A program made the translations under genes and the position numbers. From a bacterium (GTDB lineage: Bacteria; Hydrothermota; UBA3073; JACQXS01; JAGMCI01), in assembly GCA_030018315.1 (NCBI GenBank), contig JASEGA010000001.1, positions 12,673 through 76,672 of the forward strand: 64,000 nt of DNA. The letters run 5' to 3'. Under the pieces are notes generated by a model, which worked only from the letters and a program-made list of their open reading frames with translations, ran no database searches and was not told the origin of the DNA. Positions within the stretch are counted from its first letter, which is position 1, and every line of letters begins with the position of its first letter. Of the stretch, positions 462 to 49,859 are shown piece after piece.

Positions 462-1319
462 ATGAAAGAGGAAATTTCTGTAATAATTGTGACCTGGAAT
501 TCAGGCGAATACATTGAAGGTTGTTTAAAAGCACTTGGTCTTGAGCCTGCCTCGCCGAGTCAAGGCGGGTATGAGATAATTCTTGTTGATAATCACTCAC
601 TTGATATAACAGTTGATTTAGTGAGAAAGAATTTTTTGGGCGTCCGTATAATTGAAAACTTCTCTAATGTTGGGCTGTCAAGGGCAATCAATCAAGGTGC
701 TAAAATATCAAATGGTAGATATCTGCTCATCCTTAACCCTGATGTTGTAGTTATGGAGGACACAGTTAAAAAGCTTTACCAATTTATGCAAGAAAGAGAA
801 GAAATTGGTGCTTGTGGACCCCGCTTTTTATGGCCTACAGGTAGAATTCAGCCATCTTGTCGTGAGTTTCCAAATTTTAGCAACTTATTTCTTGAATTTA
901 TAGGAATTGGAAGGATAATGAGATTTTCAAAGTGGAAGATGGGTTATTTCAATCACAATAGTGCGAGAGAAGTAGACCAGCCAGCAGGTTCATGTTTACT
1001 TGTTAGGAAAGAGATTTTTAATAAAGTAGGAGGAATGAATGAATCCTATCCTTTCTTTATGAATGATGTAGATTTATGTTACAAGATAAAAAGGATGGGC
1101 TATAAGCTACATTTTGTTCCAGAAGCAAATGTGATTCACTATTTAGGGGGGTCAACTCGTAAGGTACGACGAAAAATGATTCTTGAAGAACACTTAAGTA
1201 TATATAGATATCTAAGAGACCATTTCAACAATTATTTTTTAATAGCCCTATACGGCTTCTTACTTCTTATTAGCTCTTTTTATCGTATCCTTTTTAGTCT
1301 TATTTGGCATCATCGGTAA
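462..1319 (+). CDS. Glycosyltransferase family 2
   Basis: 285 aa. It carries the IIVTWNS..ILVDNHSLD and DxD-type motifs typical of GT2, and resembles the ORF at 38709-39578. Confidence 0.75.
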   Translation: MKEEISVIIVTWNSGEYIEGCLKALGLEPASPSQGGYEIILVDNHSLDITVDLVRKNFLGVRIIENFSNVGLSRAINQGAKISNGRYLLILNPDVVVMEDTVKKLYQFMQEREEIGACGPRFLWPTGRIQPSCREFPNFSNLFLEFIGIGRIMRFSKWKMGYFNHNSAREVDQPAGSCLLVRKEIFNKVGGMNESYPFFMNDVDLCYKIKRMGYKLHFVPEANVIHYLGGSTRKVRRKMILEEHLSIYRYLRDHFNNYFLIALYGFLLLISSFYRILFSLIWHHR

Positions 1320-1359
1320 TAACAAAATAAAAATAATAAGAATAACTACTTATTTTATC

Positions 1360-1388
1360 TTGACAATTGCTTAAATTTTTGTTATATT
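1360..1388 (+). promoter_or_regulatory. Sigma70-like promoter for tRNA-Val (TTGACA-17nt-TATATT)
   Basis: TTGACA at 1360-1365, a 17-nt spacer, then TATATT at 1383-1388. This places the transcription start a few nt before the tRNA at 1398. Confidence 0.55.
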
Positions 1389-1397
1389 TAAAAAAAA

Positions 1398-1471
1398 GGG
1401 CGGATAGCTCAGATGGTTAGAGCGTCGGTTTCACATACCGGAGGTCATGGGTTCGACTCCCTTTCCGCCCA
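1398..1471 (+). tRNA. tRNA-Val (anticodon CAC)
   Basis: Cloverleaf read by hand. Acceptor stem is gggcgga/tccgccc. Anticodon stem is tcggt/accgg (U-G closing pair) with 7-nt loop ttCACat. T-arm is GGTTCGACTCC. Confidence 0.8.
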
Positions 1472-1477
1472 TTTTAA

Positions 1478-2191
1478 GTGAAAGAAGAGCTAAAGACTCT
1501 CTGGAGGTTACAGAAGCTTGATACAGAAATTTCTAAATTAGAAGCACGTAAAAAGAATATTCCTCAAGAAATTCAGCAGTTAAATAAGAAGCTAAAAGCA
1601 AAGGAAAAAGAGCTCCAGAAGCAGAAAGAAACATTTCAAGAGTTTATCACACGTAGGAGGAATTTAGAACAAGACGCAGAGGAGTCAAAGGATAGGGTAA
1701 GGCGCTATAAAGCTCAACTATTGCAAGTTAAGACAAACAAAGAGTATCAGTCCATTTTACACGAGATAAGCACAGAGGAAGTTAAACTATCAGCTTACGA
1801 AGAGGAAATTATTGATGCTCTTACTCAGAGTGATGAACTATCTAAACAGATAGAAAATTTGAGTAAAGAGTTAGAAAAAGATAAAGATAAATTTTCAAAG
1901 TATGAAGAAAAACTACAAAAAGAGCTTTCTGAAGTAGAAAATGCTCTTCTTACAAAAAAGGATGAATATGAAAAGCTCACAAATAAGATTAACTCTGTAA
2001 TTCTTTCAAGATATCAGCAAATAAAAAGAAGTAGAGATGGAATTGGTGTAGTTGGAATATCGGAATCAACTTGTAAGGGCTGCAATGCTATCCTTCCTCC
2101 TCAATTTGTGGTTGAGGTAAGAAAAGGGAATAAGATATTAACTTGCGAACAATGTGGCAGGATTCTTATTTGGGAAGATGATGTGGATTAG
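1478..2191 (+). CDS. Coiled-coil protein with C-terminal C4 zinc ribbon (COG1579-like, putative nucleic-acid binding)
   Basis: 237 aa. A long heptad-rich coiled coil is followed by C4 Zn ribbon CKGC..x17..CEQC. Immediately downstream of a tRNA. Confidence 0.65.
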   Translation: MKEELKTLWRLQKLDTEISKLEARKKNIPQEIQQLNKKLKAKEKELQKQKETFQEFITRRRNLEQDAEESKDRVRRYKAQLLQVKTNKEYQSILHEISTEEVKLSAYEEEIIDALTQSDELSKQIENLSKELEKDKDKFSKYEEKLQKELSEVENALLTKKDEYEKLTNKINSVILSRYQQIKRSRDGIGVVGISESTCKGCNAILPPQFVVEVRKGNKILTCEQCGRILIWEDDVD

Positions 2192-4085
2192 TTTCCTTAT
2201 TCTAATCCCTTCGCTTAAGACTGTAGGTGATTACTTCTTCACTCATGGCGAGTATAAGAAAGCTGTAGAAATATATAATAGAGCTTATAGAGAAAAACCT
2301 TCCCCTGAGCTTAAGTTAAAAATTGGACTAAGTTTATACAGACTCGGTATTACTGCATTAAAAAAGGATAATTTTAATGAGGCTCTCTCCCAGTTTAAAT
2401 TAGGTGGAAATAAATATGGTATAGGGTTTGTGAATTACAAAGTAGGTAATAAAGAGAATGCGAAGAAAGTCTTCCACGACCTTAATGATTTTTATGCTTT
2501 GGGTGTAATCAGTTATCAAGAAAATGAGTTTAAAGAAGCCCTCCAGTATTTTAAGCTTGCCAATTCTCCTTATGGTATGGGAATATCTTTTTATAGACTC
2601 GGAGCTTATAAAGAGGCCTTAGATTATTTTAAAAAAGCAAACGATAATTTTTTAGCTGCCGAATGTTGTTATAAACTGAAAAAATTTAATGAAGCAGAAA
2701 GTTACTATCAAAAAGCGCTTCAAGAAACAAACTGGACAAGAGATGCATTGTATGGACTTGCATGGACCCATTATAAGTTAGGTAAGTTTAGCCTCTCAGC
2801 ACAGGAGTTTAAAAAATTTATAACCCAATATCCTAAAGACCCTTTAATACCTATTTCTCTCTATTATACAGCAAGAACTTTATTGAAGATTGGAGATTTA
2901 CAATCTGCGATTAAACATTTTAAAACACTTATCAATGAATATCCTGGCTCCGAGTTCATTGATGATTCTTATTATTGGATGGGTAAAGCATATTTTATCC
3001 AATCAGATTATACTGCCTGTATCAAACAACTCAACTTCCTTCTATCAAATTACCCGAACAGCAACCTTCGTTCCTACGCCTATTTGTTGATTGGTGATGT
3101 ATATTACAAGCAGAATGATTATAACTCTGCGATTAACTGGTACAAAAAGGTAAAAGGACCGTCAGATATACTTGACGACGCAAGATTTAAACTTGAAAAG
3201 TGTTATTTTGGGCTTGGTGAATATAGCTCAAGTTTAGATATTTTACACAATTTTATTCACAAGTATCCGAAGTCGCCTCGGTCACCAAAATTTGGGCTTG
3301 AACTTGCCCAGTATTGGGTTAAACAGAACAATTTTCAAAAAGCTATTGAATCGTATAACAATGTAATTTACAACTTTAGCTGGTCTTCATTAGTTGATGA
3401 AGCAAAACTTGGACTCGCTGATTGCTATTTTAGAATTGGAAAATATGATGCTGCTATAGAGACATATCGAGAGTTATTTAACACCTCTTTAGGAATGAAG
3501 GCACAATTTAGTCTTGCAAACACATACTTTTTGCTTGCTGAGTATGACCGAGCAATTCATGAATATGAAATCCTTATTAATGAGTTTCAAAATTCTGACT
3601 TTGCAAAAGATGCACAATATCAGATTGGCTTATCATATGAGCGACTTGAGAAGCCGAGGGAGGCGAGGCTTGCCTTTCAAAAATTTATAGAGAAGTATCA
3701 GAAAGATCCAAATTATTGGGATGCGGAGCTTAAACTATCAAAGACCTATAGGGATGAAGGTTTGATTGACGAATATCTTGAAGCCCTTCTCCATGTTGAA
3801 GCCAAAGGAGAGGGTAAACCAAAGCAGGAAGCTACTTTTTTGCTTGGTTCTTTGTATTTTGATAAAGAAGATTACAAGACTGCAAAAGAGTTTTATCTTA
3901 AAGCAGCTTCACAGTATGAGGACATTGATTCTAAATCAAAGTCGTTCATTTATGCGGCACGGTGTGCTGTAGCTTTAGGGAAAAAGGATGAAGCAATAGA
4001 GCTTTACAAGGCTGTACTCTCATTATTACCAAATCCAGCTTTAGAAGAGGAAGCAAAAAAAGGGATTAAACAACTCGGAGAGTAA
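2178..4085 (+). CDS. Tetratricopeptide-repeat protein with N-terminal membrane anchor
   Basis: Many TPR units (A/G, Y, A spacing, e.g. [26 protein letters not shown]). The in-frame ATG at 2178 avoids the overlap with the upstream ORF. Confidence 0.7.
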
Positions 4086-4087
4086 CT

Positions 4088-6472
4088 ATGAGGAAAGAAA
4101 TTATTCAAGTAGAGATTGAAGATGAAATGCAGCGGTCTTACCTTGATTATGCGATGAGCGTAATTGTTGGGAGAGCTCTTCCAGATGTTAGAGACGGTTT
4201 GAAGCCTGTACATCGTCGCATCCTCTACGCAATGTGGGAACTTGGGCTTACACATAATAGACCATTTAAGAAGTCAGCTGCTGTAGTAGGGGAAGTTCTT
4301 GGAAAATATCATCCGCATGGAGACATAGCTGTTTATGATGCCATGGTAAGGATGGTTCAACCATTCTCATTGAGATGTCCACTTATTCAGGGGCAAGGAA
4401 ATTTTGGCTCTGTAGATGGAGATGCTGCTGCAGCATATAGATACACAGAGGCAAGGTTATCTGAGATTGCCGAGTTTATGCTTATGGATATTGAAAAAGA
4501 AACCGTCCCATTGGTACCAAATTTTGATGGAAGACTAAAGGAGCCATTCGTGTTACCATCTAAGTTCCCAAATCTATTAGTGAATGGGAGCTCAGGAATT
4601 GCAGTTGGGATGGCAACCAATATTCCGCCACATAATTTAGGTGAAGTCGTAGACGCATTATGTGCATTAATAGATAAGCCGGATTTGGATGATTTTTCAT
4701 CTTATATAAAAGGGCCTGATTTCCCTACAGGTGGAGAAATAATAGGAACACGAGAGATAAGGAAAGCATACTTAACAGGGAGGGGCAAGCTTATTTTAAA
4801 AGCTAAAGTGCATACGGAAGAGACAAAGGAAGGTAAACAAGTTATCTATGTAACAGAGATTCCATATCAAGTAAACAAATCTGCGCTAATAGAACGGATT
4901 GCTAATCTTGTGAGATTAAAGAAATTAGAAAGTATATCAGATATAAGAGACGAGTCTGATAGAGAGGGGATAAGGATTGTTATAGAGCTCAAACGTGATG
5001 CTCAAGAGAGGGTAATTTTAAATAGGCTATTTAAACATACGCCATTACAGATAACTTATGGAATAGGACTTCTTGCCCTTCAAGATGGGGTACCAAAATT
5101 TTTGACCCTAAAAGACATACTTAAGGCGTTTCTCAGTCATCGATACGAAATAGTTAAGAAACGTACTGAATTTGACTTACGCCAGGCAGAAAAGAGAGCT
5201 CATATTCTTGAAGGGTTTAAAATTGCACTTTCACATATAGATAAAGTAGTTAAAATTATTAAGACATCAAAAAATGCTGAAAAAGCAAAAGAAAGATTAA
5301 TGAATAGTTTTAAGCTCAGTGATGTGCAATCACAAGCAATTTTGGATATGAAGCTATCTAGGCTTGTTGGACTTGAACGTGATAAAATTGAAGAAGAGTA
5401 TCTTGAGACGATAAAACTTAGAGAGAGGTTGAAAAGAATTCTTGCTACACCAAAAGGTGTAATGAGAGTAATACGAGACGAGCTCATTGAAATCAAGAAA
5501 AAATTTAACACCCCAAGAAGAACTAAGATAATTGAAGCAGAACAAAAAGAGCTTGAAATGAGAGATTTAATTCCAAATGAGCCTGTCTTAATTACTTTAA
5601 CTCAAAAAGGTTATATAAAATCTTCAAAAGCAGCCACTTACATGCGACAATATCGTGGCGGAATTGGAGCATCAGGGATAACACTTACTCCAGAAGATGA
5701 GGTAGCAAGAATTTTTGGTACTGAGACTCATTCTACTCTTGTATTTTTTACCAATACAGGAAGATGCTATTCTCTGAAGGCTTATGAGATTCCAGAGTGC
5801 GGAAGGGGGGCTCGTGGTAAGCCTCTTGTAAACTTGTTACAGCTAAGAGAAGGTGAGGGAGTAGTAGGCTGCTTACCTGTGAAAGAATTTAAAGGTATGA
5901 TTGTTTTAGCCACTAAGAAGGGTATGGTGAAGAAGTTGAAAGTTTCTGCACTTGAGCACATCAGAAGGACGGGTATAATTATTGCTACTTTAAGGAATGG
6001 TGACTCTATAATCTCGGGGATTCATGTAAATCCAAAAGATTATATTTTATTGATTACAAGAAAAGGTAAGGTTATCAGATTTAAAGAAGAGTTATTAAGA
6101 CCTCTATCACGAGTTTCACAGGGAGTGAGAGGTATAACACTTAGGGATAAGAATGAAGTTATAGGTGTAAAAGCTGTACCCGATAAGAAGCTGAGTTTAT
6201 TTTTTATAACATCCGATGGTTATGGAAAAAGGGTGCTGATATCAAAATTTAGACTCACCAACCGGCGTGGTTTAGGAGTAATTGGTGGTAAAGGAGAAAT
6301 AGTAGGCTGTGAAGTAGTAGATGACGATTCTGAAGTTATTATTATCACCCAAAAAGGTCAAACTTTAAGAACTAAAGTTCAAAATGTAAGAAAGATGGGA
6401 AGAGCTGCCAGGGGTGTAAGGCTGATAAGCTTAAGAGAAGGAGATAAGGTTACTGATCTTCATAAACTTTAA
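4088..6472 (+). CDS. gyrA: DNA gyrase subunit A
   Basis: 794 aa. The N-terminus [35 protein letters not shown] is canonical GyrA, followed by a C-terminal beta-pinwheel region. Confidence 0.95.
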
Positions 6473-8267: not shown

Positions 8268-9586
8268 ATGCAAAAGTATAAGTCTCAGGGTCAACTTTTG
8301 GATGATTGGGGTGAGTTGTTGAAGTTGAAAAGGGAGTCTTGGCGAATTAAGGATAAGGATAAAGATAAGGCAATGGAATTGGAGTATGAAATAACGAAAA
8401 GAATTAGAGCTTCGTTATTAAAAAATGTAAGTTTTCCAATTCTTGACATATTCCGAAAATATAAACTGAATGTGGATGAGCAATCTTTATTTATAACTAT
8501 ATTAACAAATACAATCACTGGAGACCACCTGTCAACTGTGCGCCAATTTCTCTTAATGCTATATCCTAAGCCCAGCGATGTTATAGATAAAATAAATTAT
8601 CTGTTTCCTTCTGGCAAGTTAATAAAAAACAAGCTTCTCGTCCTCAATGAAGAACGCTTTCCTTTTAGTAGAGATAATAGTACAATCTTAGATGCGTGTG
8701 TTGGTATCCATCCCGATGTGTTACAACAAATTTTGCATTCCCCGAAGCCACGACACAAACAAAATAAAGTGCCCTCTATATTTGAAGTTCGCAAGCCCAA
8801 AATTGATATGTCACATGTAGTCTTAAAGGAGCACCAAAAAGCTGAGCTATTGGAGATAATTAAATATTTAAATAATTACAAGTTAATCTGTAAGACCACG
8901 AATCTGGCTCAAACTTTTGAGAAAGGTAGAGGTTTTATTCTCCTTTTTTCAGGCCCTCCAGGTACTGGTAAAACCTTATCTGCCGAAGCAATAGCAAACG
9001 AGTTAAATAGGAAGTTATATACAATAAATTTTGCCCAACTTGAAAGTAAATGGGTAGGTGATACTCTGAAAAGAATATTAAAGAAGTTTTTAAGACAGTA
9101 AAAACTACTTCTGCTGTTCTCCTTATAGACGAGGCTGACACAATACTTACGAGGCGTGTCTCTGCTGATAGACATACAGATGTGTCTTATAATAGAAATG
9201 TGTTAGTTCTCATGCAAGAAATAGAGAATTTTGAAGGCATCTTAATTCTAACTACAAATCGTGTTGATATACTTGATAATGCACTTGACAGGCGAATTGC
9301 ATTTAAGATAGAATTTGATTTACCGGGTATTGCTGAGAGGGAAAAAATCTGGCAAGTCCTGGTACCTGATAAGGTGGTAATTGACACAGGGGTTGATTTC
9401 TCTGTTCTTGCTAAACGCTTTCCTTTTGCTGGTGGTAACATAAAGAATGCAGTATTTTGGGCAATTATGAAGGCAGGTGAACGCTCACCTACCTCACCAA
9501 TACTTAAAATGGAAGACTTACTAAGTGCAGGTGAAAGAGAATATAGTAAGATGAATAAAAATTCAAAAAGCAGGATAGGATTTTGA
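8268..9586 (+). pseudogene. AAA+ ATPase (classic clade, single AAA domain with about 220-aa unknown N-terminal domain). Frameshift near 9095-9105, between Walker A and Walker B.
   Basis: ORF 8268-9101 ends ...FSGPPGTGKTLSAEAIANELN..KKFLRQ*. The downstream frame continues VLLIDEADTIL...TTNRVDILDNALDRRIAFKIEF (Walker B, sensor, Arg finger). The break is in a T5 run. Confidence 0.65.
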
Positions 9587-10347: not shown

Positions 10348-10806
10348 ATGATGAAATTATTTATTGCGAATGTTGGAGTGAACACAAGTCATGTAAGTAA
10401 AGGTCTCCGGAGTCCGATATTCTCAGATAAGACCTTTGAGTTTATTCCTATTCCAGAGGAAGAAGAAAGGAAAAAAGTCTTATTTTCTCCTCGATACTGT
10501 GAAATTCGGTGTTTCAACAAGCCAAATCTAGCAATTAGCGAGTATTTATGTCCTGAAAGGCGTTCAGATATTGCTCATAATGATCCAGAGTTTAATGATC
10601 CAGAGTTTAATGATCCAGAGTTCAAGTCTTTTACTTATGGTGATATTTTTTCTCCACGAGCCGCTAATCTCAAGGAAATACAACCAGATGACCTTCTTTT
10701 CTTTCTTGCAAGGTTGTGGTTATATAAAGATGGATTTACTAATGAGAGCGATCTTTACTTCATCGGTTACTTCACGGTAGAAAAAAGATTTGCTCCAAAG
10801 ACATAA
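10348..10806 (+). CDS. Hypothetical protein (152 aa). The N-terminus is faintly reminiscent of Nmad3-type nucleotide-modification-associated domains. Contains an NDPEF x3 tandem repeat.
   Basis: RBS aaaggagggg upstream. N-terminus MMKLFIANVGVNTSHVSKGLRSPIF..FEFIPIPEE. The Nmad3 resemblance is from memory only. Confidence 0.4.
   Translation: MMKLFIANVGVNTSHVSKGLRSPIFSDKTFEFIPIPEEEERKKVLFSPRYCEIRCFNKPNLAISEYLCPERRSDIAHNDPEFNDPEFNDPEFKSFTYGDIFSPRAANLKEIQPDDLLFFLARLWLYKDGFTNESDLYFIGYFTVEKRFAPKT
10582..10626 (+). repeat. In-frame 15-bp tandem repeat x3 (gatccagagtttaat) encoding NDPEFNDPEFNDPEF
   Basis: Read directly. The third unit has 2 substitutions. Confidence 0.85.
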
Positions 10807-13200: not shown

Positions 13201-13542
13201 TGTTGGAGTAGATTGCTTGGCTCGGACAAAAGATAATAAATTCTTGGTTATGGTTGAATTTAAAGCGTATTTTACAGATACAAACTCCATCCGTAGTGCA
13301 GTACTCCATAGAATGTTTCTTAAGGAATTGGGTGAAAAGGAAAAGATGTGTCCTTATAAAAAGATTCTATATTTACTATGTAAGTATCGATTGGAGAGAT
13401 TTTTTGAACGATTTATAGAAAGAGGAAGAGAAGAAAAAAGGCAAAAAGAAAGTGAGTCTTCCATTGATGAAATGGGCAGTTGATAAAAAGTATATAGATG
13501 GCTTCTATGGACTCAAACAAATACAAAAACTGCTAAACGACA

Positions 13543-14235
13543 TTGGGAGAAAGTACAAAAATGAGAAATAAGAATGGAAAAGAAGTGATTGAAGAAACTA
13601 AAGGGCTTTGGGATGTTTTTCATATACCGAGAGAAGAAATAAATAAGCGTACTGATGAAGCGATGAAAAATCCACCATTCAAAAAAGAAATTGAGCAATT
13701 GCTAAAGGAAGTACCATTATCAAAAGTAAATAGGGCAAAAACTTTATGGGATAAATGGTACAAAGAGTATATAAAAAATGAAGAATTGGAGCAAATTTAT
13801 CGTGCATTTTGCTCAAGTCTTAAGACAAGACACTCTTACTGGAGATTTAAGTCAGCTTCTCTCTTGTTCTTGTATATTTACGGGTATGTATCGGATGAAG
13901 AATTAGACTTAATTGAAAAGGATATAGATAACAGCGGGCAAATTTTTGATAAACATAGAGAAGACCTACAAGCAGTTAAAGAAATAAATGATACTTTTAA
14001 AGATGCAACCTTTTGGAGCCATATTCCTATGAATATATCTTGTTTAGCAATTGGTGCAAGTATTGCATTTACAAGGGCAGTGAAAGTGATTTTGGATGTG
14101 ATAGAGAGATTACACAAAAATAAGGACTATAGAGAAGGTCATTATTATGGTGGAGTAATTGATCGGGATGAAGCTATATTACTCCAGGGCTACCCATATG
14201 ATTGGCTCAAAAAAGGAGGGAAAGAGGCTTTGTGA
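13543..14235 (+). CDS. Hypothetical protein (230 aa)
   Basis: ORF with no recognisable motif. Last gene of the putative island. Confidence 0.35.
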   Translation: MGESTKMRNKNGKEVIEETKGLWDVFHIPREEINKRTDEAMKNPPFKKEIEQLLKEVPLSKVNRAKTLWDKWYKEYIKNEELEQIYRAFCSSLKTRHSYWRFKSASLLFLYIYGYVSDEELDLIEKDIDNSGQIFDKHREDLQAVKEINDTFKDATFWSHIPMNISCLAIGASIAFTRAVKVILDVIERLHKNKDYREGHYYGGVIDRDEAILLQGYPYDWLKKGGKEAL

Positions 14236-14273
14236 AAACAGAAAGAAAAAGAAAGCAAATAAAGAGTTAAAAT

Positions 14274-14325
14274 GAGGGACGAGGGGCGCTACGAATGTTT
14301 ATCTGGCTGTTCCTCTCGTTCCCTC
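14274..14325. other. Strong imperfect hairpin (13-bp stem gagggacgagggg / cctctcgttccctc, 25-nt loop) downstream of the island
   Basis: Paired by hand with one bulge and one G-U. There is no U-tract on the plus strand. Confidence 0.4.
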
Positions 14326-14462
14326 TGATAAAGTAAACGCAATCTATCAGTGTAGTTGATTATCACTCTAAATCCAATTATATCAGGTAACTCTCTGCCA
14401 GCCCAAAATGGCTTTTAACTTGACAAAGTCGGTGGTTTGACATATTTTATCTTACAAACACT

Positions 14463-16313
14463 ATGGCATATTCTATACTAACAATCTTATTAATAGGGAT
14501 TCTGGAAGAAAGTTGGCAGCCTGCATTATTTGATGCTTTAAGTTACATTAAAATGACTCCTCAAGATGTCTATATTACTTCACAACCTTCAGATACATTT
14601 TGCCTTCCATTGGTTCTTGACCTCCTAAAAAGACCTATCCAGTCTCCCAAAGTTGTTGATTCCATCGCTTTAACACTTAAAGATGCTGAACTCAGCGAGC
14701 TTGTAGATATAGCAGGTATATGTATAAATTCTACTTTATCTGATAGTAGTCGAGTTCACTTGGACTCGTTAGCGGCAAAACGAGCTCTACAACTACATAA
14801 GGAGCCACTACAATTTTTGCTTTCCCAAATTACTCTTGCAAATAATTTATTAAAGAGAACGACAGCACAACTTGATTCTTCTGAATTAAACTTCTTAAAA
14901 GAGAATTTACCTAAGATTATACTTGAAGACACTACATTTAAGGACAAAAATCCGTATGAAAAAAAGATTGCAGAGGAAGAAAGTAAAGAAATAGTTAAGA
15001 AATGCCTTAATCTTTTGAAAAAAGTGAATAGAGATGAAATTATGCTATCCGCTTATGTAATTGGAAATGCTATTACACAAACCCTTCCTGGTAGGGACAC
15101 GCCGTGGCGTGTCCCTACAATTAAATATGAAGGAAAGGTTGTAACTCCTGTTGCTACAGGTGATGTTGTCTTTGCTAAGCGTATGGAATATGGATGGATT
15201 GTGATTGGTGGCCCCGGTGAGACTATATATACTGGAGACCCTGCTGTAGTTATTGACCTCGGTGGTGATGATAAATACTATGGTAAAGTAGGAAGTGGGT
15301 CCTCCGGAGTTTCAGTGTGTATTGATTTCTCTGGTAATGACTTATATCTCTCATCTATGGATTACAATTTAGGGTCAGGCTTCTTTGGAGTAGGATTCTT
15401 ATTGGACTTTGAGGGCAATGATATATACTCCTCCGGTAACTTTTCTCATGGCTCCGGATTAGTAGGGGTAGGAATTCTATGGGATACTCAAGGTAATGAC
15501 AAGTATTTTTCTGATACCCATTCTCAAGGAGCAGGCAGTTTTGGGGTAGGAGTTTTGAAAGATTTGAGCGGTAACGATTCTTATCATGGTGCACTTTATG
15601 TACAAGGATTTGGTGGCACTTTCGGGTTTGGTGCTCTCGTGGATTCAGCTGGTAATGATGTTTATTATGCAGGCGGAAAATATAAGGATTGGCTTAGATA
15701 TGAGGACCACTTTTTGTCACTATCTCAAGGTTTTGGTTATGGGATAAGACCTTATGCATCAGGTGGTATTGGAATATTAGCAGATTTTCATGGAAATGAT
15801 TCCTATGTATCAGACATTTTTGGTCAGGGTTGCTCTTATTGGTATGCTTTGGGAGGGCTTATAGATTACGAGGGTAATGATGTGTACAGCTCATACCAAT
15901 ATGCACAAGGGGCAGGTGTCCACATTGGAATTGGTGTTCTTATTGATAAATTTGGGGATGACAGTTATTTTGCAAAAGGTGTATCACAGGGGTGTGGTCA
16001 TGATTATGCGACTGGAATCCTTATAGATGGTGGTGGAAATGACTCCTATTCAGCTTACGATTTATCTCAAGGTGCAGGTAATGCAAATGCTGTCTCAATA
16101 CTTATAGATATAGATGGCAATGATAATTATCTTATAAGAGATAAAGAAACTACACATGGATTTAGTGATTTAAGGCGAGATTTTGGTGGTATTGGAGTGA
16201 TACTCGACCTCGGAGGCAAGGATAAGTATTCAGGATATGGTGATAACAATTCAATATGGGTACACTCAACTTATGGGGTCGGTATAGATAAAGAAATAGA
16301 AAGTTTAAAATGA
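14463..16313 (+). CDS. Repeat protein with about 12 units of a 23-residue GNDxY...QG.G..G.G.L.D motif (FG-GAP-like / beta-propeller or beta-helix-like) after a 230-aa N-terminal domain
   Basis: Repeat units: GGDDKYYG, SGNDLYL, EGNDIYSS, QGNDKYFS, SGNDSYHG, AGNDVYYAG, HGNDSYVSD, EGNDVYSSY, FGDDSYFAKG, GGNDSYSAY, DGNDNYLI, GGKDKYSGYG. Contains the 28-bp palindrome in frame at 15091-15118. Confidence 0.55.
   Translation: MAYSILTILLIGILEESWQPALFDALSYIKMTPQDVYITSQPSDTFCLPLVLDLLKRPIQSPKVVDSIALTLKDAELSELVDIAGICINSTLSDSSRVHLDSLAAKRALQLHKEPLQFLLSQITLANNLLKRTTAQLDSSELNFLKENLPKIILEDTTFKDKNPYEKKIAEEESKEIVKKCLNLLKKVNRDEIMLSAYVIGNAITQTLPGRDTPWRVPTIKYEGKVVTPVATGDVVFAKRMEYGWIVIGGPGETIYTGDPAVVIDLGGDDKYYGKVGSGSSGVSVCIDFSGNDLYLSSMDYNLGSGFFGVGFLLDFEGNDIYSSGNFSHGSGLVGVGILWDTQGNDKYFSDTHSQGAGSFGVGVLKDLSGNDSYHGALYVQGFGGTFGFGALVDSAGNDVYYAGGKYKDWLRYEDHFLSLSQGFGYGIRPYASGGIGILADFHGNDSYVSDIFGQGCSYWYALGGLIDYEGNDVYSSYQYAQGAGVHIGIGVLIDKFGDDSYFAKGVSQGCGHDYATGILIDGGGNDSYSAYDLSQGAGNANAVSILIDIDGNDNYLIRDKETTHGFSDLRRDFGGIGVILDLGGKDKYSGYGDNNSIWVHSTYGVGIDKEIESLK
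15091..15118. repeat. GTAGGGACACGCC-gt-GGCGTGTCCCTAC 28-bp palindromic element, in frame (encodes GRDTPWRVPT)
   Basis: Read directly: 13-bp perfect arms and a 2-nt centre. Confidence 0.85.
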
Positions 16314-17221
16314 AAAAGTCAAAATTATTGTCCAAAATTAAAATATACCTTTGCTTCCTTCTGGTTACTATCTGTTTTCTTACTGCTTCTGCCTATCAAC
16401 TCTCACCTATGGACAGCCTATTTGTCAGGGCTTCGACTGGTGAAATAAAATATTTACAATGGAATAAGCCTGCAAGGGATAGTTTTGTTAATTTAGGTGA
16501 AACTGCTATCCCTTATCTCCTTAAGAAATTAGATACTGATGATGCAAGGGAGCAACATACATTGATTGATATACTCAAAAAAATGAAAGTGTATGCAGTA
16601 GCTCCTCTTATTTCAAAAGCAAGTGAAGGTGACAGAGGTAGCAAGCTTGCTGTTTATGTACTTGGTGAGATTGGTGATACCCTTGCTGTGTCACCATTAC
16701 TGAGTTTACTTGATAAAGGCGACTGGCAGTTAAAAGCTAATTGTTTAGTTGCATTAGGAAAAATTGGCGACATAAGGGCGACTTATAAGATTATTCCATA
16801 CGTACAGGACACTATACTTTCTATAAGAAGGAGTGCAAGTATTGCTTTATCAAAGTTAGGCGACTCTACATCAACTAAATCATTGGTTAATGCTATCTTT
16901 GATTCCTGTTATTCTGTGAGATTTGCTGCTTCATCTGGTTTGATAAAGATTGGACAATCTGCCGTTAATCCACTTATTAAAAGTCTAACTACAGCTCTTC
17001 CTCCAATAAACTACCTGATTATCTACACTCTCGGTGAAATAAAAGATAAAAAAGCTATCACTGAGCTTAGGAAGTTACTCAAATCTTCTGATTCAAAAGT
17101 TCGTGGTTTTACAGTGGAAGCACTTGGTAAGTTAGGTGATTATAAAACAATTAAAAAGTTGCATCAAGACGAACAAAATGGGTTTGTAAAAGACAAGTTA
17201 AAAGAGGCGCTTGAACATTAG
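16310..17221 (+). CDS. HEAT-repeat (PBS-lyase-like) protein with N-terminal signal/anchor. Translationally coupled to the upstream repeat protein (ATGA overlap).
   Basis: Repeated A..LG.IGD..A..PL..LL.D motifs. The start overlaps the upstream stop. Confidence 0.65.
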   Translation: MKKSKLLSKIKIYLCFLLVTICFLTASAYQLSPMDSLFVRASTGEIKYLQWNKPARDSFVNLGETAIPYLLKKLDTDDAREQHTLIDILKKMKVYAVAPLISKASEGDRGSKLAVYVLGEIGDTLAVSPLLSLLDKGDWQLKANCLVALGKIGDIRATYKIIPYVQDTILSIRRSASIALSKLGDSTSTKSLVNAIFDSCYSVRFAASSGLIKIGQSAVNPLIKSLTTALPPINYLIIYTLGEIKDKKAITELRKLLKSSDSKVRGFTVEALGKLGDYKTIKKLHQDEQNGFVKDKLKEALEH

Positions 17222-17742
17222 AGACTGGCAATTTTATTTATAATTTTAGTAGTTGAATATCCAGGTACTTTTGGTATTATGACAACTTTACCACCTTCTT
17301 TTTGCACGATCTCTCTACCAACTATTTCGTTTATTTTATAATCCCCTCCTTTTACAAGGATATCCGGCTTTATAGTCTCTATTAACTTTTGTGGTGTAGA
17401 CTCGTCAAACAAGACTATATAGTCAACAAATGAAATAGCACAAAGAACTGCTGCTCTATCTTTTTCGTTAAAAATTGGTCGTCCTTTACTTTTAAATTTT
17501 TTTATAGAATTGTCAGTATTTAATCCAACTATTAGTATATCACCAAGCTCTTTTGCTCTATGTAGACACTCAATGTGGCCACGATGAATTATATCAAAAC
17601 ATCCATTAGTAAACACAACAACCTTACCTTCCACTTTTGCCTTTTTACGAATCTTCACTATTTCCTTTATTTTAACAACAGCACAGTCATCCTTCGCCAA
17701 GTTATGCTTAATTTCGTGTTTCCTCATCTTGTCTCCTTGCAA
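17218..17742 (-). CDS. hldC: D-glycero-beta-D-manno-heptose 1-phosphate adenylyltransferase (RfaE/HldE domain II, standalone)
   Basis: VVFTNGCFDIIHRGHIECLHRAKELGDILIVGLNTD cytidylyltransferase motif. Confidence 0.8.
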   Translation of the reverse strand: MQGDKMRKHEIKHNLAKDDCAVVKIKEIVKIRKKAKVEGKVVVFTNGCFDIIHRGHIECLHRAKELGDILIVGLNTDNSIKKFKSKGRPIFNEKDRAAVLCAISFVDYIVLFDESTPQKLIETIKPDILVKGGDYKINEIVGREIVQKEGGKVVIIPKVPGYSTTKIINKIASL

Positions 17743-17763
17743 AAAATCGAACCTAATTTTTAT

Positions 17764-18409
17764 TTATATTCTGTTATTTAGAATTTCTTTTATTTTAGAT
17801 GCTTTCTTTTTACCAATTAATGGAACTTTGGCAAGTTCCTCTTGAGATGCAAGTAAAATTTCTGAAAGACTTTTATATCTTGTGAGTAGTTCGTGAGTTA
17901 ACTTTGGGCCAATACCAGGAAAGGCTTCAAGTATTCTTTCAAGTTCTTTCTTTAGAGTTAGAGCTTTGGGTTTTGGATAAATTGAGATTTCTGGTCTTAT
18001 AAGTTGTTCTTGTTTAGCAATTGTGAACAGGAATTTAGCTGTATCAGTAGTATTCATAGTGAAAAGGATTGGCATCCTGTGATTCACTGCTATCATTGAG
18101 AGCGCTCCCCTTATTCCTGCTGGATAAACTCCTTTTACTTTGTATAGATTGTAGCCTTCAATAAGTAGTAATGGACGCTCAAATGCATCTTTCAGGTCTA
18201 CAATTTACCTAAATAGCCTCTTAGTCTTAATTGAGCTAACAAAGTCAAATGCGGTCTTTCGTTCCACACATACTCTATCAGAAAGCAGGTAGTCACCTAT
18301 TTGCATAGATTGCTGAATAACATTTATTCCTTTAGCTATTAAGATATCTATAATCCCTGATGTCTTTTTCCCTAACATCAGCATAAATTGTAATAACTTT
18401 GGATTTCAT
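17764..18409 (-). pseudogene. ERCC4/XPF-Hef-type nuclease with C-terminal HhH2 domain, disrupted by a +1 frameshift (near 18355) and an internal TAA (about 18203)
   Basis: Three minus-strand fragments: MKSKVITIYADVREKD; then SGIIDILIAKGINVIQQSMQIGDYLLSDRVCVERKTAFDFVSSIKTKRLFR*IVDLKDAFERPLLLIEGY (ERCC4 GDY..ERK motifs); then MIAVNHRMPILFT..AKQEQ..HhH. Confidence 0.6.
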
Positions 18410-18432
18410 GATATATCAAGAAAAAAGTAAAT

Positions 18433-19431
18433 CTATTTAGAAAATCCCATACCGACTGCTTGGGATAATTCGTCGTAGGTAACGGGAACAGCACCAAATT
18501 TATTCACTTCAATTCCTGCAGTAAAATTTGCTATGTAGGCTGCTTCTAAGAATGACGCTCCCGCCGCCAGTGCCATTGTGGCGCCTGCAATTGCTGCATC
18601 ACCTGCTGCAGTTTCATCGTAAACTTCGCGTGCTTTAGTTGAAATCATATGTTTACCTTTAGAGTCAAAAAGTGCCATCCCATCTTTACCTAAAGTGATA
18701 AGAACAGATTTACATTTTAGTCTTTCTTTCAGCTTTTGTCCTATTTCTTTGATATTTTTTGAACTGAGTTTTACTCCTAATGCAAATTCAATCTCTCTTC
18801 TATTTGGTTTAAATAAAGTGACACCCTCGTATTCAAAGAAATGCTCAAATTTTGGGTCAGCAGTTATAATTTTGTCAGGAACTGCACAAATTATCTTTTT
18901 AATAATTCTACTATCAAGTGTTCCTTTGTCATAATCCTCAAAAAGTACAGCATCAAATTCAGCTTTTACTGAGTTTACGAACCCAATAATATTATTCACT
19001 ACCTTTTTTGATATAGGATGCTTCTTTTCTCTATCTATTCTTGCTATCTGTTGATGTAATGTTTCAACTACTAATCGTGTCTTAACTGTTGTTGGCCTTG
19101 TAGAATCAACGAATATACCAGAAATATCCATTTTCTTTTCCCTTAGTATTTCTTTTAACCTCTTCCCTGCGTTGTCATCTCCAACAACTCCCACAAGCAA
19201 AGGACTACCTTTTAAACAATAGATATTGCAAGCTACGTTAGCAGCTCCACCTGGGTTTTGTGATTCCTTTGTAACCTCTATGATAGGGACAGGTGCTTCC
19301 GGGGAGATACGGTCTACATTCCCCCAGATATACTCATCTAACATTATGTCACCAATTACTAAGATTTTTTTACCCTTAAATTTTTGAATTACGCCATTAA
19401 ATTCCATTTTTTTTATGATAAAATAACCCAC
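18433..19431 (-). CDS. hldA: D-glycero-beta-D-manno-heptose-7-phosphate kinase (RfaE/HldE domain I, PfkB-family sugar kinase)
   Basis: GDIMLDEYIWGNVDRISPEAPVP. Carries a PfkB-type GAGD signature near the C-terminus. Confidence 0.8.
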   Translation of the reverse strand: MGYFIIKKMEFNGVIQKFKGKKILVIGDIMLDEYIWGNVDRISPEAPVPIIEVTKESQNPGGAANVACNIYCLKGSPLLVGVVGDDNAGKRLKEILREKKMDISGIFVDSTRPTTVKTRLVVETLHQQIARIDREKKHPISKKVVNNIIGFVNSVKAEFDAVLFEDYDKGTLDSRIIKKIICAVPDKIITADPKFEHFFEYEGVTLFKPNRREIEFALGVKLSSKNIKEIGQKLKERLKCKSVLITLGKDGMALFDSKGKHMISTKAREVYDETAAGDAAIAGATMALAAGASFLEAAYIANFTAGIEVNKFGAVPVTYDELSQAVGMGFSK

Positions 19432-19440
19432 ATTTCCAAA

Positions 19441-19484
19441 ATTGTCAAGTTTTTGCTTGACAATGAGTGATTGGTAAATATAAT
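19441..19484 (+). promoter_or_regulatory. Divergent promoter region. Operator-like palindrome ATTGTCAAG-N6-CTTGACAAT overlaps a TTGACA -35 box; TATAAT at 19479-19484 (spacer about 15 nt).
   Basis: Read directly. 9-bp perfect inverted repeat between hldA (-) and tilS (+). Confidence 0.4.
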
Positions 19485-19511
19485 TTAATTTATTGATTTC
19501 TGTTTACATCA

Positions 19512-20906
19512 ATGAAAATGATTAATCAAGTACTACAAACTATAAAAAAATATAAACTACTCGCCCCCTATGACAGAGTTCTTATTGCTGTATCTGGTGG
19601 GCCTGACTCAATGTGTTTACTTTGGGTTCTCAAAGATATTAAAGATATTTATTCTTTGGAACTTAGTATTGCTCATCTTAATCACTGTCTAAGGAAAGAG
19701 GCAGCTCAAGAGGCAACTTTTGTTAAAAGGATAGCTCAAAAGATTGGGATTCCTTGCTATATTGAAGAAAGAGATGTTAGACATTATGCAAAAGCTTACA
19801 AACTCTCATTAGAAGAGATGGCAAGGTATGTGAGATATGCATTCTTAGAGGAAGTTGCCCTAAAATCTGGTATGAATAAGATTGCTGTCGGTCATACAGC
19901 AAACGATGAAATTGAAACTCTTATACTTAGAATTGTTAAGGGAACTGGTCTTAAAGGGCTATCGTTAATTCCACCCAAACGTGGCAAGATTATAAGACCG
20001 TTAATAGAGACGGATAGGAGTGACGTACTGAGATTTCTTGATAGCCAAAAAATACCGTATCAAGTAGATAAATCAAATTACGATATCTCATACCCACGTA
20101 ACTTTGTGAGACATAAGATTATACCTTTACTTTCTGAATTTGCGTCTGACTTATCAAAAAAGGTTATCCGATTAAGAGATATTTTAGAAGCTGATGAAGA
20201 GCTTCTTGAGCGCATCGCAAAAGAGAAGCTACAAGCTATAACATTGGAAAGTAAAAAAATGGGACGGGTTCTTGACTTGGTAAAATTCTCAACAACTGAA
20301 TTACCAATAAAAAGGAGAATTTTAAGAGAAGTCATAGAAGAGTTGAGTCCAATTCATAAGGGCCCTCCTTCTTTTGAACAAATAGAGAATACCCTTAATT
20401 ACATAGATAAGGGTAACTCTATGAGTTCGTTTAATTTACGAGGAGTAAAGATTGAAAAGAGCTACGGGAAGCTTCTTATAACACGGATGGATGCAGATGC
20501 AAAATCACTCCCGATTAAGTCGGAACACTCCATAAAAGAAACTGAATTCCTGGTTCCCGGTGAAATTGAAATAAACGGGCTAAAAATTAAATCCCGTATT
20601 TGCACTATGCGGAAAAAGTTTAATTTTGACAACCCAAACAAAGTTTATTTTGACCTTGCTAATCTAAAGCTACCACTTTTTATCAGGGGTAGAAAAAATG
20701 GTGATATATTTTATGGTCTTAATTATGCGAAAAAGTTAAAAGATGTTTTTATTGATGACAAGATACCAAGAGAAGATAGGTCAAGGATTCCATTACTTTT
20801 AGACCGTGAAGGCATTTTATGGATTATTGGCAAAAGGAGAACACGTAGAGCACTGATAGGAGAGCATACTACTCAGGTGCTTGAAGTATGGGCAGAAGAG
20901 ATTTAA
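19512..20906 (+). CDS. tilS: tRNA(Ile)-lysidine synthetase
   Basis: PP-loop SGGPDSMCLL and a TilS C-terminal domain. Confidence 0.85.
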   Translation: MKMINQVLQTIKKYKLLAPYDRVLIAVSGGPDSMCLLWVLKDIKDIYSLELSIAHLNHCLRKEAAQEATFVKRIAQKIGIPCYIEERDVRHYAKAYKLSLEEMARYVRYAFLEEVALKSGMNKIAVGHTANDEIETLILRIVKGTGLKGLSLIPPKRGKIIRPLIETDRSDVLRFLDSQKIPYQVDKSNYDISYPRNFVRHKIIPLLSEFASDLSKKVIRLRDILEADEELLERIAKEKLQAITLESKKMGRVLDLVKFSTTELPIKRRILREVIEELSPIHKGPPSFEQIENTLNYIDKGNSMSSFNLRGVKIEKSYGKLLITRMDADAKSLPIKSEHSIKETEFLVPGEIEINGLKIKSRICTMRKKFNFDNPNKVYFDLANLKLPLFIRGRKNGDIFYGLNYAKKLKDVFIDDKIPREDRSRIPLLLDREGILWIIGKRRTRRALIGEHTTQVLEVWAEEI

Positions 20907-22783
20907 GAATGCGTAATCAAAAAAACAAACCAATTAAACCCAGTCCCTCTCCGAAGGGGCCGGGTAAACCTACAAAAGTATCTTTTATTGTAGGCATAAT
21001 TTTTTGGGTTCTACTTTTTTTCTTCTTTTTCTCTATTATTTCACTTCAAAAAGGTAAAATAGGTGAATCTATGGAAATTCCCTATTCTACATTTTATACT
21101 GAGGTAGATGCAGGAAATGTAAAGAGTATAGTGATTGCAGGTAAAGATATAAGAGGAGAATTTAAAGAGGCTATTAAGTTAAAAGATAGCAGTTACAAGA
21201 AATTTAAAACTGCCATACCATTTGAGGACCCAAATTTTGTAAATGAACTTGTAAAAAAGGGAGTCATAATAGAGTCAAAATCTTCCTTTAATATATGGAG
21301 TAAGTTTTGGCCTTATCTTCCATTTGTCTTCCTAATTATAATTTGGCTTCTTATTCTTCGTCAAGCTGGTCAGGCTCCTCGTCAAGCACTCTCGTTTGGC
21401 CAGAGTAGGGCAAAACGCTTTTCTGGTGAGAAGCACAAGACTACATTTGATGATGTTGCAGGTGTAGATGAAGCAAAGGCTGAACTTAAAGAGATAGTTG
21501 AGTTTCTCAAGTCGCCACAAAAATTTGAGCGTCTTGGTGCAAAAATTCCAAAAGGTGTAATACTACTCGGCGCTCCTGGAACAGGCAAGACTTTACTTGC
21601 ACGTGCTACTGCGGGAGAGGCAGGTGTTCCATTTTTCTCAATGTCTGGGTCAGATTTTGTTGAACTCTTTGTTGGTGTCGGGGCTTCAAGAGTTAGAGAT
21701 TTATTTGAAAGAGGTAAAAAGAACAAGCCTTGCATCATATTTATTGATGAACTTGATGCAGTGGGCAGACATAGGGGAGCTGGAATTGGAGGTGGGCATG
21801 ATGAGAGGGAGCAAACTTTAAATGCATTACTTGTTGAGATGGATGGCTTTGAAGCAAATGAGGGTATCATAGTGATGGCAGCTACAAATAGACCGGATGT
21901 CCTTGACCCAGCCCTATTGAGACCCGGTAGATTTGACCGCCGTATTGTAGTTGATAGACCAGATTTACGTGGTAGAGAAGAAATCTTTAAAGTCCATACA
22001 AGAAATATTCCTCTTTCAAAAGATATAGACCTTAAGGTTATTGCACGTGCGACTCCTGGTTTTTCTGGTGCTGATATAGCAAATACAGTAAATGAAGCTG
22101 CACTTCTTGCTGCAAAGAAAGGCAGAGATAAGGTATTAATGGAAGATTTTGAGGAAGCGCGTGATAAAGTGCTTATGGGAGTGGAGCGTAGGAGTCTTAT
22201 TATACCTGAGAATGAACGTAAAAATACAGCCTGCCATGAGGCGGGTCATGTTCTTGTTTCTAAATTTATACCAGAAGCTGACCCTATCCATAAAGTTACA
22301 ATTATACCGAGAGGTATGGCGCTGGGACTTACTCAACATCTTCCTATTGATGAGCGTCGTAATTATTCAAGAGAGTATTGTCTTGCCCAGCTTGCTGTTG
22401 CATGTGGTGGAAGAGCGGCTGAACTTATTTTACTCAATACAACGACAACTGGTGCTCGTAACGATATTGAACAAGCAACAGAACTTGCAAGAAAGATGGT
22501 ATGCGAGTGGGGTATGAGTGATGCTATTGGACCATTAGCTTTTGGTGATAGGCGTGAAGAAATATTTCTAGGAAGAGAGATTGCACAACGGCGTGATTAT
22601 TCTGAAGAGACTGCTCGTCTTATAGATAAAGAGATTAATAAATTAGTGAGAGGAGCAGAGGAGAGGGCAAAGTGTATAATTAAGGACCACATTGAAGAGT
22701 TACATAAAATAATAAATAGCCTATTAGAAAAAGAGGTTTTAACTGGCTCTGAGATAGACGACATATTAAATATCAAAAATTAA
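20888..22783 (+). CDS. ftsH: ATP-dependent zinc metalloprotease FtsH
   Basis: AAA Walker [12 protein letters not shown], and HEAGH zinc site, with an N-terminal TM pair. The start could be a few codons downstream. Confidence 0.95.
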
Positions 22784-48079: not shown

Positions 48080-49156
48080 ATGGATTTGGGTCAACAGGTA
48101 TCTAACCTGACTGCTGTCAGGCCTACCTTGCCGTCAAGCAGGCAAGTAAAGATTCTTGTATCGGTTTGGCCTGGATTAGGCGACGTTGTATTTGCGACTC
48201 CAGTATTCAGGATATTGCGTAAAAAGTTCCCGGATGCCAAAATTGCAGTCTTAACTCAGTCTAAAGGTGGAAAAGAGTTATTAAGCCATACTCCGTACAT
48301 TGACGAAATTGTATACTCTCCTCTTTTATCAATACCTGCACTTGTTTTAAAGTTTAAAGGATATGATATTGGACTTCAATGTTCAGGTCCTATCCAGTTA
48401 TTTTTTATACTTTGTAGGATTAAGAAAAGAGTGAGCTTTAGTGGAAATCCATTTTGGTGGCTTTATCCTGTGAGTGATAATAACTATCACTCTACAGAGT
48501 ATTATCTAAGAGCGGTAGATAAGATAGATGGAGTAAAGTTAAGAGATACAAATGGGTGTGAACTCTTTATTGGAGAAAAAGGAAAGAGGTTTGCACAAGC
48601 TATGTTAAAAAATATCCCTCACCCAATTGTAGCTGTACATCCTGGGGCAAGATGCAATAAGAATAAACAATGGGGAGCCAAAAATCTTGTTAAGCTTTGT
48701 AACTCCATCATTGAAAAATTTAACGCCCAAATATTGCTAATTGGAGGTAAAAGTGATGTAAAATTATGTAACTATATCCAGAATCATATCCATACAAAAG
48801 CTTTAAATCTTGCAGGAATGACGACACTACTCCAATCAGCCGCTATTATTGAGGAGTGTGACTTGTTTATAGGACATGCATCCGGGCCTACTCATATAGC
48901 AGCTGCACTTGGCACTCCTGTAGTTGCAATATACGGTGCAGATAACCCAAAAAATTTCGCCCCATTAGGGAGAAGTGTGATAGTTGTGACACCAAAACTT
49001 AGATGTGCACCATGCTTCCACTTTTACAGAAACTTTTTATGGGGTCTTAGGCTAAGATATATCCCAGTTTGCAAAGCTATTCAAACAATTAAGGTGGAAG
49101 ATGTATTTAATGCATGCGCTCAAGTTTTAAAAAATGAGGAAAAAGAAAGAAAGTAA
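48080..49156 (+). CDS. Glycosyltransferase family 9 (LPS heptosyltransferase-like)
   Basis: ILVSVWPGLGDVVFATPVFRILRKKFPDAKIAVL. The C-terminal half is GT-B. Confidence 0.8.
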   Translation: MDLGQQVSNLTAVRPTLPSSRQVKILVSVWPGLGDVVFATPVFRILRKKFPDAKIAVLTQSKGGKELLSHTPYIDEIVYSPLLSIPALVLKFKGYDIGLQCSGPIQLFFILCRIKKRVSFSGNPFWWLYPVSDNNYHSTEYYLRAVDKIDGVKLRDTNGCELFIGEKGKRFAQAMLKNIPHPIVAVHPGARCNKNKQWGAKNLVKLCNSIIEKFNAQILLIGGKSDVKLCNYIQNHIHTKALNLAGMTTLLQSAAIIEECDLFIGHASGPTHIAAALGTPVVAIYGADNPKNFAPLGRSVIVVTPKLRCAPCFHFYRNFLWGLRLRYIPVCKAIQTIKVEDVFNACAQVLKNEEKERK

Positions 49157-49859
49157 AATAAAGTATTTTTTAATATCATTCTTCACTTCTCTCATAGTAG
49201 CCGCTTGTGTTTCATACGGAATTTTTCAATTCTTTTTTAAATTCAAATGGGTTGAAGTACCAAAAATTGATGGAACAACACTTTCGGAAGCAATAACTAC
49301 ACTTGAGAAAAGCGGTCTTGAAATTATAGTAGAAGAAGAGCGCGCTGATACCATCGTCCCTGAAGGTAAGATAATATCACAACAACCACTTCCGTGGAGC
49401 ATAGTAAGAAAGGGAACATTAATTAGAGTAGTGTTGAGCAAAGGGCCGTTGAAGATAAAAATGCCAAATCTTATAGGAATGCCACTGGACGAGGCAGAAT
49501 TTAAACTAAATGAAATTGGTCTATCGGTTGGTGAAGTCAAATATGAAATTTCTGATTCAGCTCCTAATTCTATTATATTAAGCTCTCCCGGCCCAAATGA
49601 GTTTGTAGAGAAAGGTAAAATTGTAGACCTCATTGTAAGTAGAGGAGCATATTTAATCACTGTCCCAAACTTATTTGGAAAGACATTATGGCAAGCAAGG
49701 AAGATTTTAGCGGAGAAAGGACTTAAAATTGGAGATATTTATTATACATGCGATGAAGAATATAGATTTGGTATAATTATACGCCAGGACCCACCTGCTA
49801 ATACCAAAGTGAGTAAAGAAACTCCTATCTATTTTACTATAAATAGGGAAGAGAAATGA
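49134..49859 (+). CDS. Membrane-anchored protein with three PASTA domains
   Basis: N-terminal TM segment; three ~65-aa units each containing G..L.EA...L...GL. Confidence 0.65.
   Translation: MRKKKESKIKYFLISFFTSLIVAACVSYGIFQFFFKFKWVEVPKIDGTTLSEAITTLEKSGLEIIVEEERADTIVPEGKIISQQPLPWSIVRKGTLIRVVLSKGPLKIKMPNLIGMPLDEAEFKLNEIGLSVGEVKYEISDSAPNSIILSSPGPNEFVEKGKIVDLIVSRGAYLITVPNLFGKTLWQARKILAEKGLKIGDIYYTCDEEYRFGIIIRQDPPANTKVSKETPIYFTINREEK

Follow-up and report, generated by a model that had tools for sequence, protein, structure and literature searches.

Between the two genes for ADP-heptose synthesis in a bacterial contig lies a nuclease gene of archaeal or eukaryotic type that appears to be broken. 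Did a foreign gene land there and decay, is the break an error of assembly, or has a resident gene been lost? We analysed a stretch of 64,000 nucleotides (contig JASEGA010000001.1, assembly GCA_030018315.1, positions 12,673–76,672; called the window here). At window positions 17218–19431, on the minus strand and head to tail, it carries hldA, then the remnant of an ERCC4-(HhH)2 (helix-hairpin-helix) gene, and then hldC. The gene context identifies the host genome as bacterial (TilS, FtsH, DnaB, MlaE/D, RF-1). An earlier note on this DNA had proposed an insertion into an hldE region, or a fission of hldE, followed by decay. We conclude that the ERCC4 remnant is very probably a real and recently inactivated pseudogene of a resident bacterial gene.

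The remnant lies at 17764–18409 on the minus strand, with its ATG at 18409–18407 and its present stop at 17766–17764. As it stands, this stretch is readable in two frames with an internal TAA. Once repaired it would have about 215 codons, and all domain and structure matches were computed on this conceptually repaired translation. Residues 11–128 match the Pfam family ERCC4 (PF02732; 1.2e-28, 100.2 bits against a cut-off of 24). Residues 159–212 match HHH_5 (39 bits, cut-off 27), HHH_2 (28.8 bits, cut-off 27), and HHH (29.7 bits, cut-off 24), and this stretch can be aligned with HhH2 of ApXPF. Among known structures, Aeropyrum pernix XPF (PDB ID: 2BGW/2BHN) was matched over its full length by residues 8–210 (1.9e-29), and the nuclease domain of Pyrococcus furiosus Hef (PDB ID: 1J22) followed at 1.9e-26. 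Human XPF (PDB ID: 6SXA; 1.8e-12) and FANCM (7e-5) were matched as well. The catalytic signature GDXnERKX3D is still encoded (G38-D39, E49-R50-K51, and D55) and is invariant in 18 aligned homologs. These matches, and the literature on the family, agree with what the earlier note had claimed, and the repaired product is predicted to be an ERCC4-(HhH)2 nuclease of the archaeal XPF/Hef type, in the short form. At the family level, the NCBIfam Hef nuclease profile was matched at 3.9e-61 by its C-terminal 209 positions (569–777 of 781), and the archaeal Xpf profile at 1.4e-39. Both equivalog cut-offs were missed (Hef NF010337, 207.1 bits vs. 610; Xpf NF040956, 135.9 bits vs. 300). The gene is therefore best placed in a bacterial branch of its own within the ERCC4 family, as an equivalog of neither Hef nor Xpf. 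By analogy with A. pernix XPF (2BGW) and P. furiosus Hef (1J22), the intact orthologs would be structure-specific endonucleases that act as homodimers and cleave branched DNA, for example forks and 3′ flaps.

Alignment of the DNA with intact orthologs showed that the reading frame is interrupted by two single-nucleotide insertions and one nonsense codon. Three orthologs carried most of this comparison and are called L010, L001, and L006 here; their identities to the repaired protein are 90 %, 73 %, and 70 %, respectively. The first lesion (18362–18369, minus strand) is a one-nucleotide insertion, GAAAAAG[A]C, so that codon 15 is the last one read in frame. The added base is best taken as the A at 18363, beside an A5 run at 18365–18369, which leaves its exact place ambiguous. 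The corresponding sites in intact relatives read GAAAAAG-CT (L010) and GAAAA-GGCA (L001), and deletion of the A at 18363 restores REKASG, identical to both. Translated from its ATG as it stands, the remnant therefore ends after 25 residues. The second lesion (18205–18207, minus strand) changes CAA to TAA, by a C to T exchange at 18207, at Q68 in the conserved stretch KTKRLFRQ. Q68 is invariant across the 18 sequences and is encoded by CAA in L010 and L001 and by CAG in L006. The third lesion (17770–17775, minus strand) replaces AGG with AACA, a one-nucleotide insertion with substitutions, in the codon of the nearly invariant R212. The last four codons are altered by it, from ...ILNREYK* to ...ILNNRI*, and the stop of the ancestral frame remains at 17760–17762; in the clade, conservation of R212 and Y214 is 90 % or higher. 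Both lesions listed in the earlier note, a frameshift and an in-frame TAA, are thus present, but its count was one short. Together, the three small mutations would block synthesis of the full-length protein in the window genome.

Are these lesions in the organism or only in the assembly? The Logan assembly of SRR23186779 contains an 8,510-bp locus that is 100 % identical to window positions 13218–21727, lesions included, and its gene caller divides the nuclease in the same way as the open reading frames (ORFs) of the window. The Logan contig is 18.8 kb long and the window 64 kb, so we take them to be separate assemblies; an independent assembler has thus yielded the same sequence. The lesions reproduced there are absent from L010, L001, and L006. 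With a base added between G and C, one transition, and one compound change, they are unlike homopolymer miscounts, and neither the substitution nor the compound change is typical of an indel artefact. Three lesions fall within 645 nucleotides, while the abutting hldA (975 nucleotides), hldC (510 nucleotides), and some 50 housekeeping genes of the window are unbroken. For each of the latter that was examined, the profile match was full-length; these were GyrA, FtsH, TilS, DnaB, a RadA-like protein, ValRS, TIM, PdxA, the transketolase halves, DHPS, CdaA, CoaBC, Gmk, Dtd, MlaE/F/D, and UDG. All the remaining broken frames in the window belong to dispensable genes: an insertion sequence (IS) transposase, a repeat-containing surface protein of the type IX secretion system (T9SS), Nmad3, and AAA. 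By a rough estimate, at least seven lesions placed at random over approximately 52 kb of coding sequence would all fall within the approximately 4.5 kb that dispensable genes occupy with a probability of about 3e-8 (0.086^7). Random errors are improbable, because approximately 48 kb of essential coding sequence was spared.

Several points weigh against a real pseudogene. The Logan assembly may come from the same reads as the source of the window, in which case a systematic error at the level of the reads is conceivable. The insertion of the first lesion adjoins the A5 run. The amino acid identity of 90 % between the remnant and L010 (74 % for the kinase) would also be expected of an intact gene with assembly errors. 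In the literature searched, moreover, we found no activity assay of the intact bacterial orthologs. A gene that is intact in the organism, with three errors in a metagenome-assembled sequence, would also account for the otherwise perfect conservation of the remnant, with its catalytic residues in place and a low ratio of nonsynonymous to synonymous change (see below). The source does look metagenome-derived, and the closest relatives are all metagenome-assembled genomes (MAGs) or metagenome contigs. Set against the identical Logan contig, the nature of the lesions, and their confinement to dispensable genes, we consider such an artefact unlikely; nor did any sign appear that the lesions are sequencing errors, which the earlier note had raised as a possible outcome.

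Could a real but broken frame still be expressed? A +1 ribosomal shift or transcriptional slippage at the A-run combined with readthrough of the TAA, or the assembly of two fragments, would keep the locus functional. There is an A5 run at the shift site, and two residual ORFs, each with its own ATG, are separate gene calls in the Logan assembly. The first (18205–18384, minus strand, 59 residues) carries the GD...ERK...D part of the ERCC4 domain; the second (17764–18096, minus strand, 110 residues) spans the last part of the nuclease domain together with (HhH)2. Residues 69–104, including the invariant P79, E84, and G85, are absent from both. A full-length product would require that two frameshifts and a stop be overcome, and the 90 % identical ortholog needs no recoding, which leaves no conserved recoding signal. 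TAA is the commonest ordinary stop in the window, where it ends 36 of the 59 long ORFs, including the ERCC4 gene itself, so the TAA at codon 68 is not a recoded sense codon, and an alternative genetic code was rejected on the same grounds. The tRNA scan of the window found five tRNAs, all ordinary, and neither it nor the Rfam scan reported anything in the focal region. We regard continued function of the locus as extremely improbable.

If the gene is a true pseudogene, was it foreign or resident? A word-indexed protein search with the repaired protein returned 44 relatives, and the top matches were intact proteins of 214–235 residues. The named relatives include a Candidatus Stahlbacteria MAG (73 %), which is the closest of them, candidate division TA06 (approximately 56 %), and an Armatimonadetes MAG and a Marsarchaeota archaeon (both approximately 40 %). 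Among GTDB species representatives, matches occurred only in the Stahlbacteria MAG (73 %) and the Armatimonadetes MAG (40 %). The metagenome scan gave more than 300 relatives, including the JGI contig Ga0315280_10120822 (L010). L010 encodes an intact ortholog of 215 residues, with 90 % amino acid and 89 % nucleotide identity, immediately 3′ of hldA. MBI4722310.1 is another such intact bacterial protein. Within the lineage, the intact proteins have 214–215 residues. The homolog check proposed by the earlier note thus revealed a bacterial family in this very gene context.

The gene order around the intact copies is conserved. L010 has hldA-ERCC4 followed by an unrelated small ORF; L001, from Stahlbacteria, has hldA-ERCC4-UPF0758_N-type IIG restriction-modification (R-M)-hldC; and L006 has hldA-ERCC4-hldC-prfA-prmC, with overlaps of 26 and 4 nucleotides. 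In all three, neighbouring stop and start codons overlap or nearly abut. As judged from these arrangements, the intact nuclease gene would, in this low-GC lineage, normally form a compact unit with hldA and hldC, all three reading in the same direction. In L001 (JACQXS010000043.1), positions 1049–5747 hold UPF0758_N and an R-M gene of 1143 residues, which separate hldC from the intact ERCC4 gene. The hldC frame there has no N-terminal HxGH nucleotide-binding motif, and only its residues 54–166 align. With the small unrelated ORF of L010, this insert suggests that the slot 3′ of the nuclease gene seems to accept foreign DNA. More distant relatives (57–62 %) show the reverse order: hldC-ERCC4-ECF (extracytoplasmic function) sigma in L011, L090, and L092 (62 %), and hldC-ERCC4 in L014 (57 %), followed in this group by an ECF sigma/anti-sigma pair. 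By gene order, adjacency to the heptose genes therefore appears to recur in a second arrangement. Other homologs, at 53–65 % identity, lie in unrelated gene contexts. The recurrence of this placement, with translational coupling, in at least five diverged lineages and two orders might be taken to mean that the nuclease is functionally or regulatorily coupled to ADP-heptose and envelope synthesis, and that its loss here was adaptive; we hold this to be very unlikely.

The insertion scenario can be weighed against these arrangements. It holds that a foreign nuclease gene of archaeal type recently entered the hldE region, or broke hldE in two, and then degenerated, being cargo without a function. 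In its favour, ERCC4 nucleases are classically assigned to archaea and eukaryotes (PMC3424549, PMC6320978), the nearest matches beyond the close clade, at approximately 40 %, include the Marsarchaeota archaeon, and the slot just 3′ of the nuclease gene takes up foreign DNA in relatives, as described. Yet the same slot holds intact orthologs, with stop and start codons overlapping, in lineages diverged to 70 % amino acid identity, and the gene bears the mark of long selection (see below). Composition gives no hint of an insertion either: the GC content of the locus is uniform (0.32–0.36), and there is no break in GC or skew and no notable direct or inverted repeat flanking the gene. A mobile-element insertion was rejected on these grounds. 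No closely related genome (>90 % average nucleotide identity) was seen in which hldA abuts hldC or in which hldE is fused, nor was a placement of this copy within a recent archaeal donor clade seen. The genes hldA and hldC are separate in many bacteria that have no nuclease gene between them (PMC10221265), and since this organisation is already known, no nuclease-driven fission is needed. If the gene ever came from archaea, this must have happened long ago, with long-term maintenance thereafter. We therefore judge a recent foreign insertion very improbable. The suggestion of insertion or fission followed by decay is not supported by the comparison with orthologs at 90 %, 73 %, and 70 % identity; the hldA-ERCC4 and hldC-ERCC4 orders in relatives, which the earlier note had asked to be looked at, likewise speak against a recent insertion.

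To estimate how long the gene was maintained, dN and dS (nonsynonymous and synonymous substitutions per site) and their ratio ω were calculated by the Nei–Gojobori method between the window and L010. Over 210 codons, the ERCC4 remnant gave dN 0.053, dS 0.689, and ω 0.077, and the hldA kinase gave dN 0.166, dS 1.317, and ω 0.126. The low ω indicates that purifying selection acted on the ERCC4 gene up to the very recent past. On the assumption that ω was approximately 0.05 in the functional gene and rose to 1 with its inactivation, no more than a few per cent of the divergence would postdate the loss, which fits a handful of neutral changes, the three lesions among them. Against the more distant L001 and L006, the remnant is as conserved as its neighbours, which says little about relaxed constraint. 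The ERCC4 gene is 89 % identical to that of L010 at the nucleotide level (dS 0.69), compared with 75 % nucleotide and 74 % amino acid identity (dS 1.32) for the abutting kinase. In this comparison of L010 positions 15–1577 with window positions 17764–19431, the contrast may stem from recombination or from an exchange of the segment that holds the nuclease gene, or else from differing constraint. Intact orthologs in the same slot and the low ω point to the nuclease as an old, selected resident of this position in a Stahlbacteria-like lineage that appears to have been lost recently, and here only. We infer that the loss was tolerated because the enzyme is dispensable.

The heptose genes on both sides are intact and presumably functional in the window genome. 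The two enzymes lie on separate genes of the same strand, as the earlier note had described. The gene hldA, which encodes a PfkB-family kinase, probably the heptose-7-phosphate kinase, extends over 18433–19431 (minus strand) from a GTG; its likely start is the ATG at 19407, which gives 324 residues and matches the Logan gene call. The product matches Pfam PfkB at 4.2e-40 and scores 343.2 bits with TIGR02198 (rfaE_dom_I), 1.8 bits under the cut-off of 345, in alignment with residues 5–312 of HldE. The rfaE domain I is its sole strong family match, the next best being ribokinase at 78 bits. The adenylyltransferase gene hldC (17218–17727, minus strand) more likely begins with an ATG preceded by AAGGAG, with a TTG at 17742 as an upstream alternative start. 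Its HxGH motif is present, and its product of 169 residues was recovered exactly in the Logan assembly. It passes TIGR02199 (rfaE_dom_II; 201.3 bits vs. a cut-off of 181.5) and matches CTP_transf_like at 6e-23. No terminator-like site was found between hldA, the ERCC4 remnant, and hldC, so the three genes are probably co-transcribed as one unit. A promoter-like site, TTGACA-17-TATTTT (19420–19448, minus strand), lies upstream of hldA. In the 80-nucleotide intergenic region between hldA and tilS, promoter-like sites stand back to back (19420–19484), and the plus-strand site facing tilS is a perfect 12/12 match, TTGACA-16-TATAAT. A family-9 glycosyltransferase gene (GT9, heptosyltransferase type) at 48080–49156 (plus strand) fits a real use of ADP-heptose by this organism; no scanned ORF of the window was recognised as gmhA, gmhB, or hldD.

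Other genes of the window are decayed or otherwise noteworthy. At 61634–62770 (minus strand), a surface-protein gene with GWAVG repeats and a T9SS-type C-terminal sorting domain is broken by two frameshifts into three frame segments, a further case of accessory-gene decay. Remnants of a DDE transposase, with IS4/IS5-like motifs (e.g. ...AAMDAAYDS...), lie at approximately 60630–61500 (plus strand) in two frames with internal stops, within a 1.3-kb stretch that has no long ORF. An ORF with an Nmad3 domain at 10348–10806 (plus strand) matches profile positions 3–143 of 247, carries a triple NDPEF repeat, and is followed by approximately 720 nucleotides (to 11527) with short ORFs only; the gene is probably truncated. 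The ORF at 8268–9101 ends after 50 of the 131 positions of an AAA domain, a truncated AAA gene. The region from 6.5 to 13 kb looks like a decaying accessory island. At 49134–50569 (plus strand), two adjacent ORFs of 241 and 237 residues, with three PASTA domains each, overlap by 4 nucleotides and are either tandem paralogs or a split gene.

What does the locus tell us? In itself it is an ordinary pseudogene, one more decaying accessory gene among several in the genome, and it indicates that at least one lineage can do without the enzyme. The wider family is of modest value, as a short XPF-like gene under strong purifying selection (ω approximately 0.08) in Stahlbacteria-like bacteria. The ERCC4/XPF family has been described as occurring in “Archaea & Eukaryota”, with no horizontal gene transfer observed (PMC3424549), and as having “no direct orthologs in bacteria” (PMC6320978). 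Public databases already annotate such bacterial proteins as ERCC4 domain-containing. On the evidence presented here, it is likely that a vertically maintained, selected, and uncharacterised bacterial branch exists of a family described as archaeal and eukaryotic only. The conserved bacterial XPF-like clade and its recurring adjacency to the heptose genes are minor curiosities. To our knowledge, these bacteria have no PCNA, and for this reason an intact ortholog (L010 or MBI4722310.1) would serve as a simple test case of a nuclease that works without the archaeal clamp partner.

The arrangement and the enzyme can each be compared with known systems. Separate hldA and hldC genes in place of a fused hldE are a known arrangement, seen in Neisseria and Ralstonia and also in Burkholderia and Fusobacterium, in which the kinase and the adenylyltransferase are likewise encoded by two genes (PMC10221265). 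The window and its nearest relatives differ in that an unrelated nuclease gene lies between or beside the two. The eukaryotic proteins XPF/ERCC4, MUS81, and FANCM have a homologous ERCC4 and HhH2 module in common with the window gene, but they are large heterodimer subunits with helicase-like domains, and the similarity is distant only. Euryarchaeal Hef (P. furiosus; PDB ID: 1J22–1J25, 1X2I) is the best match at the family level through its C-terminal nuclease and HhH2 part, whereas the entire N-terminal superfamily 2 (SF2) helicase part (profile positions 1–568) is absent from the window gene. The short XPF of crenarchaea (A. pernix, 2BGW/2BHN; Sulfolobus) has the same two-domain layout, in which (HhH)2 follows an ERCC4 nuclease domain that bears GDXnERKX3D, a similar size of approximately 215–230 residues, and no helicase domain. 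The bacterial clade differs from it at the C-terminus, where the crenarchaeal form has a PCNA-interaction motif, by a conserved tail, ...REY(K), and the copy in the window differs further in being a pseudogene.

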